Assembly (NCBI GenBank): GCA_965246885.1
Contig: OZ251992.1
Coordinates: 1,984,001-2,048,000, forward strand
Length of the DNA: 64,000 nt
Origin: Abditibacterium sp.
GTDB taxonomy: Bacteria > Armatimonadota > Abditibacteriia > Abditibacteriales > Abditibacteriaceae
Direction: 5' to 3'
Position numbers and translations under genes: made by a program. Below the pieces are notes generated by a model that saw nothing but the letters and a program-made list of their open reading frames with translations, was not told where the DNA came from and ran no database searches. How positions within the stretch are numbered: the first letter of the stretch is position 1; each line of letters starts with the position of its first letter. Below are positions 11,957 through 15,043 of the stretch, in pieces.

Positions 11957-13642
11957 TCACTTGCCGATTTTGTCGGCGGTCGTCAGGAGCCAGTCGAGGT
12001 TTTGCACGCCTTGTTCCGCCGACAAAATGAGGTCGTCTTCTTTCCAGCAGGTGCGCACGAAGTTGCCGACGAGGTAATCCACCGGGTCGGGGTAGTGCGA
12101 AATGTAGCCATCGGGCGCGACGTACTGGGCGATGTAGGAGTTGCCTTCGCCCTTGACGCCCGCGTACTGCACGACGCGCCCGTTGAACGAGAAGCGGCGG
12201 CGCGGCGGACGGTTATCCACAATTTTGTCGAACCAACGCACGATGGCGCGGCACATCAACAAGCGCCCGCCCTCACATTGCACGCCAAAGCGCGCGAAGA
12301 TCTCCGTCGTGACTCCGGTTTGGGAAGCGGACATTTGCACGCTGTCTTTGAGTATCTGCGCGCCCTCGCCCGCCAAATACTGCGCGACGGAAAGCGGATG
12401 CGAGGCGAGTTCGATCCACAACTCCTTGGGGTCGCGCGGCGATTTGACGTTGAGGGTTTCGATTTCCATTGCGAAATCGCCCACTTCCAAAGGCGACACG
12501 CCCGCCAAACGGCAGACGATGGGCGTAGCGGCGCCATATTGCAACTGGGTCGCTAAGACAAGCTCGCGCTTGGCGGCGGCGCGCAGCAGTTCTTTGGCGC
12601 CGTCCATGTTTTCGCGTTTGGAGCGTCCCGGCGAATACACGAGCGGCTTTTCGCATAAGACATGGACGCCCGCTTCCAAGCACTGCATCGCTTGGGCGTA
12701 GTGGAAGGGCGACGGCGACGCGATTACGGCGGCTTGGGGTTGGACTTTGGCGAGGAGTTCGCCCAAATCGCTGTACCCTTCGCCCGCGAAACCGATGCTT
12801 CCGGCCAAGTGCGCGCGGGTGCGCTCGATGCTGTCCTCGCTTGTGCCCAAAAACGCTACCACTTCGCCGCCGTTTTTGGTCATCCAACGCGCGTGGTCTT
12901 TGCCGATGCCCGACGCGCCCAAGATTGCCACTCGCAACCGGGGCCGGAGCGGAGCGACGGTGGCGAAGGGGTCATCCGCCGTCACGTATTGCACGCCTTT
13001 ATCCGCTTCGGGGGGTGCGATGAGCGGGGCGGGCGCGGGAGCGGTCGGGGCAGGGGTGAGGAAAACGGCGGGGGTGACGGACGCGCGGACTTCGGGCAAG
13101 TCCGTTAGCTCTTCGTCTCGTTGCGCAAAAGGCGAGGGCGGAGCGACGAACGACGAGGCCGCTTCGGGGCTGGCGGGCGCGGGCGCATCGTCGAGCTTGT
13201 AGCCCGCGAAGCCGGTTTTAGCGGCGGGCTTTTCCGCTTCGGAAGCGGGAGCATTGGCTTCGATGGGCGCGATGTCGAGCGGCAACGGCAGCGCGGGCGG
13301 AGCAAAGGAGATGTCTCCGACATCGGGCGCGGAGCCGGTGTTGGTGGCCCAGTTGGGACGCTCGGCGTCCAGTGGGGACGCGACGTCGAGGCGGAACGCT
13401 TCGTCGGCTTGCGCTGAGGACGAAGCCGACGAAGCGGCGGGCGGGTGGGGCGGCGCGATGGGAGTTGGCTCGTCCGCGAGGAGATGGGGGGCGCTCTCGT
13501 CGTCTATGGGGTCAAAGCCAAAATCGGCGAACGGGTCGTCTTCAAGGGGCGGTTCATGCGCCGCGTCGGACGCCGGGGCGGGGGGAGCGCCCTCGTCCGC
13601 GTGAGGCTTTTCGTCGAAGAAGGAGAAGTTGAACGTGTCCAC
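11957..13642 (-). CDS. Gfo/Idh/MocA-family oxidoreductase-like protein with a ~230-aa acidic/Pro-rich N-terminal extension
   Basis: LRVAILGASGIG Rossmann motif and HVLCEKPL motif; low-complexity N-terminus; GTG start. Confidence 0.8.
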   Translation of the reverse strand: MDTFNFSFFDEKPHADEGAPPAPASDAAHEPPLEDDPFADFGFDPIDDESAPHLLADEPTPIAPPHPPAASSASSSAQADEAFRLDVASPLDAERPNWATNTGSAPDVGDISFAPPALPLPLDIAPIEANAPASEAEKPAAKTGFAGYKLDDAPAPASPEAASSFVAPPSPFAQRDEELTDLPEVRASVTPAVFLTPAPTAPAPAPLIAPPEADKGVQYVTADDPFATVAPLRPRLRVAILGASGIGKDHARWMTKNGGEVVAFLGTSEDSIERTRAHLAGSIGFAGEGYSDLGELLAKVQPQAAVIASPSPFHYAQAMQCLEAGVHVLCEKPLVYSPGRSKRENMDGAKELLRAAAKRELVLATQLQYGAATPIVCRLAGVSPLEVGDFAMEIETLNVKSPRDPKELWIELASHPLSVAQYLAGEGAQILKDSVQMSASQTGVTTEIFARFGVQCEGGRLLMCRAIVRWFDKIVDNRPPRRRFSFNGRVVQYAGVKGEGNSYIAQYVAPDGYISHYPDPVDYLVGNFVRTCWKEDDLILSAEQGVQNLDWLLTTADKIGK

Positions 13643-13687
13643 TGTGGAAAGTGTGCCCTATTTGCGTGTACGCCATGCGCGAAACGC

Positions 13688-13722
13688 AAAAAAGCCGCGC
13701 TTCGGGCAGAAGCGCGGCTTTT
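13688..13722 (-). terminator. Intrinsic terminator (6 U on minus strand; possibly bidirectional)
   Basis: aaaaaa-gccgcgcttc-gggca-gaagcgcggc-tttt. Confidence 0.82.
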
Positions 13723-13895
13723 AGAACGGTGAGCGCGCGGGATTATCCTGAACGGATAGTTCCACCACGCTCTTGAAGGCCGTTACAGAAGGTGGTCTGA
13801 AGGTTCAGACGCGCCCTCAAGAGCGAGTTCAGGACTCGCGCTCACCTCGGCCAAATTGTCTACTACTAATATGGACCACCTCCTTGGTTGGTTGC
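13688..13895 (-). ncRNA. Candidate structured small RNA (~205 nt), family unassigned
   Basis: Bounded by a TTGCCA-N17-TATACT promoter and the terminator. Three nested stems: 13728-37/13837-46, 13746-53/13827-34, 13768-80/13813-25. G-U pairs work only on the minus strand. Confidence 0.65.
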
Positions 13896-13900
13896 CAACC

Positions 13901-13929
13901 AGTATAAATGCAGTCAAGTGCGATGGCAA
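13901..13929 (-). promoter_or_regulatory. Sigma70-type promoter for the candidate sRNA
   Basis: Minus strand TTGCCA (13929-13924), 17-nt spacer, TATACT (13906-13901). Confidence 0.7.
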
Positions 13930-13954
13930 GCCCTTCTGCCACACTATTTCTATC

Positions 13955-15043
13955 ATGCCCGAACTCACCCGTACCCCCAATTTCAACGCTGGCCCCGCCG
14001 CCTTGCCTTTGCCCGTCTTGGAGCGGGTGCGGGCCGAACTGCTCGACCTCGACGGCACCGGCATGTCCGTCATGGAATGGAGCCACCGCTCCAGGGGGTT
14101 CGAGGCCATTAACAACAACGCCCAAAGCGCGCTCAAGCGGTTGCTCGGCTTGAGCGACGACTGGGAAGTGCTGTTCCTTCAAGGCGGCGCCAGTTTGCAG
14201 TTCTCGATGGCGCCGATGAACCTCTTGCAACACGGCGCGCGCGCCGATTACCTCGTGCACGGCTCGTGGGGGCGCAAAGCGCTCGCCGAAGCTAAAAAAG
14301 AAGGCGCCGCGCGTGTTGCCGCTTCTTCCGAAGAGGCCGGGTGGAAGCGCGTGCCAACGCCCGCAGAGTTCGAGTTGGACGCCCATGCCAAATACGTCCA
14401 CTTCACCTCCAACGAGACAATCGAAGGCGTGCAGTGGCCAAGCGAACCCGATGTGGGGAAGGTGCGCTTGGTTTGCGACGCTTCCAGCGACATTTTGTCG
14501 CGCCCCATCAACGCCCAAAAGTATGGCCTCATCTATGGCGGCGCGCAAAAGAACATCGGGCCGTCGGGCGTCACCGTTGTGTGTATTCGCCGCGACTGGA
14601 TTGAGCCGCTTCCCACGCTTCCGACCATGCTCTCCTATGCCACCCACGCCAAAGAGCGTTCGCTGTACAACACCCCCGCGACTTTTGGCATTTATATGGT
14701 CGGCCTCGTGTGCGAGTGGATAGAAGGGCACGGCGGCGTAACAGGCATGGCCGCGCGCAACGCCGCCAAAGCCAAGGCGCTGTATGACGCCATAGACGCC
14801 AGCGCCTTTTATTCTGGCTTCGCCGAACGGGAAAGCCGCTCGCAAATGAACGTGACGTTCCGCTTGTCCGATGCCGCCTTGGAAGCGCGCTTTGCCGAAG
14901 AAGCCGCCCACGCGGGCATGGTCGGGCTGAAGGGGCACCGCAGCGTCGGGGGCTTGCGCGCGTCGTTATATAACGCCGTCGAGATGGAGTGGGTCGAGGC
15001 GCTCGTGCAGTTTATGCGCGAGTTTGAGCGCGTCAACGGCTAA
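13955..15043 (+). CDS. serC: Phosphoserine aminotransferase
   Basis: NFNAGPAALP, SVMEWSHRS, FLQGGASLQF, GAQKNIGPSG, KGHRSVGGLRASLYN; start ATG 13955. Confidence 0.96.
   Translation: MPELTRTPNFNAGPAALPLPVLERVRAELLDLDGTGMSVMEWSHRSRGFEAINNNAQSALKRLLGLSDDWEVLFLQGGASLQFSMAPMNLLQHGARADYLVHGSWGRKALAEAKKEGAARVAASSEEAGWKRVPTPAEFELDAHAKYVHFTSNETIEGVQWPSEPDVGKVRLVCDASSDILSRPINAQKYGLIYGGAQKNIGPSGVTVVCIRRDWIEPLPTLPTMLSYATHAKERSLYNTPATFGIYMVGLVCEWIEGHGGVTGMAARNAAKAKALYDAIDASAFYSGFAERESRSQMNVTFRLSDAALEARFAEEAAHAGMVGLKGHRSVGGLRASLYNAVEMEWVEALVQFMREFERVNG

Follow-up and report, generated by a model that had tools for sequence, protein, structure and literature searches.

The window, the whole stretch of 64,000 nucleotides of Abditibacterium sp. 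DNA analysed here (positions are counted from its first letter), carries a small-RNA gene on its minus strand, in the gap that separates a Gfo/Idh/MocA gene from a serC-like gene of divergent orientation (Table 1). An earlier reading made from the letters alone (hereafter the sequence-only reading) had proposed a TTGCCA-N17-TATACT promoter here, and indeed we found it to be the only promoter-like site in the 800 bases of 13400-14200, where 0.2 were expected. The rod (13846-13728) and the U6 terminator (13722-13688) drawn by the same reading are both part of the MFE fold, which has a z of -6.95 and was equalled in stability by 0 of 200 shuffles; the coordinates given in that reading are correct. 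Its assignment to the minus strand also holds, by promoter, terminator, ORF and G-U-type one-sided changes in homologues, but not by folding energy alone, which is nearly equal for the two strands (plus -97.3, minus -99.7) and does not decide between them. A search for sigma-70-type promoters of the plus strand, from which an antisense RNA might start, returned none within 13400-14200.

Table 1. Features of the element and its neighbours, in window positions, listed in the direction of transcription of the minus strand.
Feature	Position	Strand	Remark
Divergent class-V aminotransferase (serC-like)	13958..15043	+	adjoins 26/40 copies
-35 hexamer TTGCCA	13924..13929	-	TTGCCA-N17-TATACT spans 13929-13901
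-10 hexamer TATACT	13901..13906	-	transcription start inferred near 13894
Predicted stand-alone transcript, ~207 nt	13688..13894	-	fold, promoter; full-length model match in 24/27 family genomes
Helix P1, leader strand CCAA	13888..13891	-	pairs with UUGG 13854-13851; predicted to enclose SD and start codon
Extended Shine-Dalgarno AAGGAGGUGGUCCA (AAGGAGGTGGTCCA)	13872..13885	-	14 pairs, one G-U, with 16S 3' tail
13-codon ORF, ATT start, TGA stop, (M)SSRQFGRGERES	13829..13870	-	frame, start and stop conserved in 40/40 copies
Rod basal stem, 5' strand (ORF codons 8-11)	13837..13846	-	partner 13737-13728
Alternative hairpin GCGAGU/ACUCGC, stop codon in loop	13823..13839	-	mutually exclusive with rod
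Apical hairpin GUCUGA/UCAGAC	13795..13810	-	overlaps anti-SD
Internal anti-SD GACCACCUUCU	13787..13797	-	subclade-specific
Rod basal stem, 3' strand	13728..13737	-	partner of 13837..13846
Intrinsic terminator, 14-bp stem and U6	13688..13722	-	in MFE fold
Downstream Gfo/Idh/MocA oxidoreductase	11957..13642	-	downstream of 18/40 copies; other genes elsewhere

For the frame analysis we assembled 40 copies from the family, corresponding to 31 distinct 5' cores; the copies are related, and counts therefore overstate their independence. A TTG-N-TAnnnT promoter lies at the same distance upstream in 27 of the 40 copies and a further 10 have TTG together with a -10 close to consensus (judged by eye), while the remaining three have an ECF-like GGAAC promoter, a type that we take to belong to the ECF class. 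In the terminator 99% of the cells are paired and 11 of 12 pairs show two-sided change, as read from an alignment fitted to the same structure.

The Shine-Dalgarno sequence (SD) had been thought to pair over about 13 nt with the 16S 3' end, and with the 3' tail taken from the same genome 14 positions pair, including the single G-U. Its energy of -20.5 kcal/mol compares with a best value of -16.2 among 1492 predicted gene starts, and among 22,312 genome-wide seeds better scores were found only for 16S antisense and two G+C-rich sites. Sixteen pairs are reached by two of the 31 distinct cores only (G011 and G004). In one copy, from genome G009 (L084:1501-1707), the SD has decayed to AGGAATTGATCC and the rod is weakened while the 13-codon frame is intact, which makes this copy a natural test of SD versus peptide function. 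The 16S spacer starts with UUUCUGGAG in 21 of the 21 family loci examined (L031-L050, L060) and with UUUCUA(A/C/G)GG in most other families, and the leader of the element is partly complementary to the family spacer. We rejected a longer mature 16S tail specific to the family, there being no enrichment upstream of 80 AGGAG-led starts. Also rejected was the GTG inside the SD as the start codon; it is in frame in most copies, is out of frame in G011 and G004, and would leave no SD.

The ATT-initiated frame at 13870-13829 described by the sequence-only reading is confirmed, but it is not the sole frame after the SD, as had been stated, because an ATA at 13872 opens a second, non-conserved one. 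Across the family the ORF has 12-15 codons. The distance from SD to stop is 53, 56, 59 or 62 in 36 of the 40 copies, with the other four deviating only between SD and start, and by eye we count about eight separate in-frame length changes on the tree, all multiples of three. All 16 metagenome copies are likewise in frame; the pattern that selected them left a gap of 22-44 nt unconstrained. TAA (17), TGA (14) and TAG (9) all serve as stop codons in the 40 copies, and TGG, which the pattern permitted at that position, occurs in none. Internal stops are absent from the 31 distinct frames, although 12.9 would be expected when the AT-rich half is shuffled, and the two other frames contain stops in 10 and 28 of the 31. 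The start is ATT in 32, ATA in 5 and ATG in 3 of the 40 copies, and the triplet preceding ATT is free (15 kinds). ATT or ATA is lost or displaced solely where an in-frame ATG is present (L158, G017), and all three ATG-start copies (L079 of G017, L144, L158) have the ECF-like GGAAC-N16/17 promoter and not the sigma-70 type. G017 and L158 lie apart on the tree, with the caveat that each forms a long branch.

The encoded peptides are hydrophilic, and their N-terminal half is unconstrained in both length and sequence, although the start Ile is followed by Ser in 21 of 31 cores, encoded as TCA, TCT, AGT or AGC. The end is conserved as G-x-G-(G/E)-x-E-S. Selection on the amino acids is weaker than that on the frame. 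In the last eight codons, pN/pS is 0.60 and frame +2 gives 0.59; because the two score alike, amino-acid selection there is indistinguishable from stem constraint. From its conservation across copies, we conclude that the element is a predicted mini-mRNA whose 12-15-codon frame is selected for translation from AUU or AUA.

Helix P1, a short covarying helix predicted between the leader and the middle of the ORF, has 4-6 bp in all 31 distinct cores, with a cognate mean of 4.61 versus 4.23 for shuffled combinations, a value reached in 1 of 5000 shuffles. All three distant homologues have a GACUG/CAGUC counterpart. In a fixed alignment register the signal of P1 is modest, with 75.5% of its cells paired and two-sided changes not above shuffles. 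For the basal stem of the rod, which overlaps the last ORF codons, the alignment, fitted to the same structure, gives 97% paired cells and two-sided change in 4 of 10 pairs. The comparison thus establishes a predicted leader helix enclosing the SD and the start, and a predicted rod base overlapping the last codons.

The hairpin around the stop codon reaches -6 kcal/mol or lower in 32 of 39 family copies and in one of three distant ones, and is weak in the other 7 and 2. In 29 of 37 copies this hairpin can be imposed for 5 kcal/mol or less, with the SD then often paired downstream, a figure computed for the native sequences only. The stop codon is thus predicted by folding to lie in a two-state fold. 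A switchable sORF mRNA, which the sequence-only reading had named as one option, fits this picture well, since the frame is clearly selected to be translated and folding predicts two states of nearly equal energy around the stop. The internal anti-SD, also proposed there, is real in the source copy, but it is strong in one subclade only and is not a family feature: only 7 of 39 copies, which belong without exception to the clade of the source copy, form an SD:anti-SD duplex of -17 to -20.5 kcal/mol. Forced in the full RNA, this pairing costs 5.9 kcal/mol, and in the same clade it is the MFE state of a nascent chain of 115-130 nt. In the source copy the SD and start are predicted to be partly sequestered in a hairpin with the ORF, and among copies the predicted accessibility of the start codon ranges from 0.01 to 0.96.

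The sequence-only reading had proposed searching related genomes for homologues. A covariance model built from 13 copies matched 24 of the 27 Abditibacteriaceae genomes once each over its full length, at 75 bits or more (13 of the matched genomes being training rows), with the next matches below 39 bits. A complete genome that carries the element is record AP024152.1 (L142). The element was not found in the other three family genomes, which are 79-92% complete, and the full-length model had no match in the four other genomes of the class. A pattern of SD and ORF end matched 21 of 185,579 species genomes, of which 17 bear the name Abditibacterium, Abditibacteriaceae, Abditibacteriales or Abditibacteriota and the remaining 4 have looser or phylum-level labels; none of the matched genomes is from the Alphaproteobacteria. 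The same pattern matched 16 metagenome contigs and no viral contigs.

To reach more distant relatives, a core model built on sequence alone was run along with a looser pattern, over 151 and 401 genomes of the phylum, and three homologues (G112, G321, G198) came to light, which belong to two additional families. Each has a TTGAC-type promoter, AGGAGGTGGTC and ATT or ATA at the same offset, followed by a frame of 13 codons that ends in S-R-G-G-C-x-(S/G)-stop and has a 9-10-bp stem partner downstream. The 16S 3' end was not found in these three genomes. Twenty non-family genomes matched the looser pattern, of which six were viewed in context (three homologues, three not) and 14 were judged from the matched string. 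Several candidates were discarded: the weak core-model matches in G015, G021, G023, G025 and G063 are antisense 16S or unrelated; 28 non-family loci from another phylum pattern, which itself missed members with ATT right after the spacer, have the appearance of coding-sequence noise; and a 16-nt complement in G321, although perfect, is embedded in a long frame and was dismissed as a chance match.

No Rfam family could be assigned at gathering level. For the element itself the Rfam search returned merely terminator-driven matches far below the gathering score, and eight homologue loci gave no match at gathering level. The sequence-only reading was right in setting the element apart from 6S RNA and tmRNA: a 6S model finds a 54.9-bit gene at C1:1171810-1172018 and nothing at the element, whose 5' end is not paired with its 3' end in the predicted fold, unlike the closed rod of 6S RNA (RF00013), and ARAGORN places the single tmRNA of the genome at another site. 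ARAGORN also lists a tRNA-SeC and two 'tRNA-Stop (tta)', possibly intron-bearing or false (G000:C1:351206-351281, 1435707-1435791, 3354297-3354378). An uncharacterised ncRNA, as the sequence-only reading had it, is not the best label, since RNAs of this kind have been described as rreB/rreR (Hahn et al., RNA Biol, PMC5711450), the nearest system known. The available text of that paper reports them for Alphaproteobacteria only and leaves their function open; rreB has 165 nt, a 17-nt SD, a GUG start and 14 codons, and is 30S-bound and weakly translated. With a predicted promoter and terminator of its own and an SD far above that of any other predicted start, the element stands out as a stand-alone rre-like mini-mRNA.

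The host makes little use of SD sites. By a crude in-house start caller, an SD of -8.4 kcal/mol or lower precedes 6.3% of the 1492 predicted starts of the source genome (G000) versus 4.8% of control windows, and its ribosomal-protein genes mostly have weak SD sites. No bS21 protein was detected in any of the 29 genomes of the class (29 of 29), whereas 10 of 12 other genomes of the phylum have it. The picture is that of a Bacteroidia-like SD-poor lineage which, given the lack of a detected bS21, would be unable to hide its anti-SD by means of that protein. A tie between the element and bS21 loss was rejected as not one-to-one: one homologue genome has bS21, and four class genomes show neither. 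As to infC, GAGGTG(A/G) with an in-frame ATA or ATC was seen in 17 of the 17 family loci fetched (G000:C1:2416800-2416880, L198 and others, 16 in addition to the first), with the start picked by best SD energy and a downstream ATG existing in some loci. The apparent start lies about 17-21 codons upstream of the first ATG, the likely choice of an annotator. Since infC combines an SD with ATA or ATC, the start of the element appears to be the predicted IF3 start of the host in a strengthened form. A strong SD next to a near-cognate start is again seen in G015:C30 (L221:1500-1670), from a genome that lacks the element, where AAGGAGGTGATCACC precedes an ATA-started frame, followed by a hairpin; this frame encodes a small Cys-rich protein with a signal-peptide-like start.

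Taking SD and frame together, the element is very probably a translated mini-mRNA that docks on the 30S subunit. In the mechanism that we propose, a 30S subunit would dock tightly via the long SD duplex and IF3 would mostly reject the AUU, as for infC in other bacteria; because of these frequent rejections, the RNA would mostly sit on the 30S subunit and would seldom be translated. If start-codon proofreading is slack, as with little IF3 per 30S or with immature subunits, a 70S ribosome would run through the 13 codons and open the rod base at the stop codon, after which the RNA could switch to the alternative fold, with the stop hairpin formed and the SD often hidden, or be degraded. The fidelity of initiation would then set how much of the tiny peptide, or of the intact RNA, is present. 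The published work available to us describes that IF3 represses near-cognate starts and autoregulates infC (PMC7797042), that in S. aureus an extended SD combined with AUU or AUA yields about 10% of the output obtained with AUG (PMC13009471), and that immature 30S subunits evade IF3 scrutiny (PMC6868393, PMC7145577). We judge it an even call whether IF3 or the state of the 30S subunit is the gating signal, and the whole account, a 30S-docking and weakly translated mRNA gated by IF3 proofreading, to be just about probable.

The RNA may accordingly report on the accuracy of start-site selection by the ribosome, but the AUU may also simply hold output low, with no sensing role. The three ATG copies and the G009 copy, whose frame outlasts its SD, likewise count against the proposed account. 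A dedicated ribosome-fidelity sensor, which would trap 30S subunits and flip its fold or release its peptide upon AUU initiation by proofreading-deficient or immature subunits, is a tentative idea that we would not bet on. Similarly doubtful is its corollary, that a near SD-free lineage lacking bS21 has retained its anti-SD for a few IF3-gated starts. The readings that stand opposed are an IF3-gated sensor, a low-dose peptide gene and a 30S decoy.

The peptide would be the product if the element were an ordinary small-protein gene, whose long SD and AUU set a low and constant dose of a 12-14-residue peptide and whose rod and terminator stabilise the message. The retention of Ser2 across TCN and AGY codons would fit such a gene, as would the conserved peptide end, the R-G-G-C-x-(S/G) motif recurring in the three distant homologues, the persistence of the ORF in G009 despite its weakened SD, and the existence of ATG variants. 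Against it, the N-terminal half is free in length and sequence, the conserved end doubles as a stem strand, and the RreB and RreR peptides lacked structure when made synthetically and caused no phenotype when overproduced (available text of PMC5711450). We therefore regard a plain peptide gene as unlikely, though a serious competitor.

In a 30S decoy or storage RNA, also named by the sequence-only reading, the SD duplex would park small subunits, and translation of the ORF would only release or destroy the RNA. This is less likely still, and it stays among the rivals. The strongest SD among the predicted starts would then occur precisely where mRNAs leave the anti-SD almost unused and where bS21 was not found in any class genome, and the consensus-like promoter, with an ECF-type promoter in three copies, would suit this role too. 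However, the available text on rreB, which binds 30S subunits, reports that 20-fold overexpression leaves growth unaffected and that ribosomes far outnumber rreB (PMC5711450), and the homologue genome with bS21 and the four class genomes with neither bS21 nor the RNA do not fit a simple decoy.

We consider it improbable that the element is a guide or sensor for 16S 3'-end maturation, with leader and SD pairing across the pre-16S 3' junction. Such pairing would draw on the uniform spacer start of the family 16S loci, and in most cores the leader UCCAG adds 5-14 kcal/mol to a duplex with the precursor, which is continuous in L144 and L158; in Flavobacterium, ablation of the anti-SD impairs rRNA processing, as described in the available text of PMC13000453. 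On the other hand, the clade of the source copy gains just 2.4 kcal/mol, changes in the leader are matched by changes in the ORF (P1), and the distant homologues use GACUG/CAGUC.

A leader or attenuator of the downstream oxidoreductase gene has very little to recommend it. The Gfo-family gene has the same orientation and, besides the copies in Table 1, lies downstream of two of the three distant ones, but the distant Gfo genes are just 30-34% identical and paralogue-like. Elsewhere other genes lie downstream (glycoside-hydrolase-like, thrS, phosphotriesterase-like, LRV-repeat), and modelled ribosome occupancy left the terminator probability unaltered in 36 of 36 scorable copies. Given this variety of genes downstream and a terminator that does not respond to the modelled ribosome, we conclude that the element is not an attenuator. 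Serine attenuation via serC was likewise rejected, as serC is divergent and not downstream, and was unseen beside 14 of 40 copies (some contigs being short). In G014 (L265, C6:2115600-2120200) the element is immediately followed by thrS, a hypothetical gene, infC and rpmI, probably as a result of rearrangement, since a congener has another gene there. The Gfo gene of the window may be leaderless, with CACACT 7 nt before its GTG start (13655-13642, minus strand) and GCACACT recurring there in close relatives, and the N-terminal ~230 residues of its product are rich in Pro, Ala and Asp and match no Pfam family. Type I toxin mRNAs and 6S RNA are known for metastable SD sequestration and a long rod, features that the element shares, but a type I toxin-like message, as the sequence-only reading had floated, or a second 6S RNA can be practically dismissed, as the peptides are hydrophilic and variable, the 6S gene lies elsewhere and Rfam gives no match at gathering level.

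In summary, the element is real and conserved, and it is a variant of a known, unexplained kind, that of rre. Like rreB/rreR as presented in the available text of PMC5711450, it is a stand-alone transcript with its own promoter and terminator (predicted here), its SD extends to the start codon, and a non-AUG start follows GGAGGU by about 12-14 nt. In rre the SD is partly hidden in a hairpin with the ORF, an arrangement predicted here for the source copy but variable among copies. The ORF is short and clade-conserved in both (14-18 codons in rre, 12-15 here), and the neighbours are not conserved across lineages. However, rre RNAs are defined there by at least 16 nt of 16S complement, 16-17 nt being perfect, whereas the source copy has 14 pairs; and their GTG start (ATG in Azospirillum), the first base of which ends the complementarity, is replaced here by ATT or ATA. 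By eye there is no peptide likeness to RreB, the only one compared (MSYLKRCHLAGIAR, read from an oligonucleotide in Table S2 of the same paper). Because the 16-nt and GUG hallmarks fail and no likeness of the peptides was seen, we call the element rre-like and not a member. It further differs in its leader helix P1, in an ORF end that lies within a long rod with an alternative stop hairpin, and in its occurrence in another phylum, in an SD-poor host without detectable bS21. The rreB RNA decays faster when its start codon is present (PMC5711450). In the open-access articles covered by our searches, we found no follow-up on rreB/rreR and no report of an Abditibacteriaceae RNA, and Abditibacteria go unmentioned in the available text of PMC10783764 and PMC11109978.

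The combination of a strong SD with a near-cognate AUU or AUA is shared with the autoregulatory start of infC (IF3) and with S. aureus cvfC1 and ccpN (PMC7797042, PMC13009471; available text), but those starts head functional protein genes, unlike the 13-codon frame on a terminated small RNA with a longer SD found here. The AUU/AUA start is held across two classes of the phylum and has the same design as the host's predicted infC start. With the AUU start, the infC parallel, the SD-poor host and the promoter-linked ATG variants, the question of rre function becomes testable, and the sensor reading, if true, would give rre-type RNAs a common job. There is also a resemblance to the autoregulation of rpsU (bS21) in Bacteroidia, where one very strong SD in an SD-avoiding genome reads the state of the ribosome (PMC13000453, PMC9976891; available text), though no bS21 was found in the class here and the element does not precede a ribosomal-protein gene. 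The comparison suggests that Bacteroidia are joined by a second bacterial lineage in setting the anti-SD aside for regulation, here without detectable bS21.
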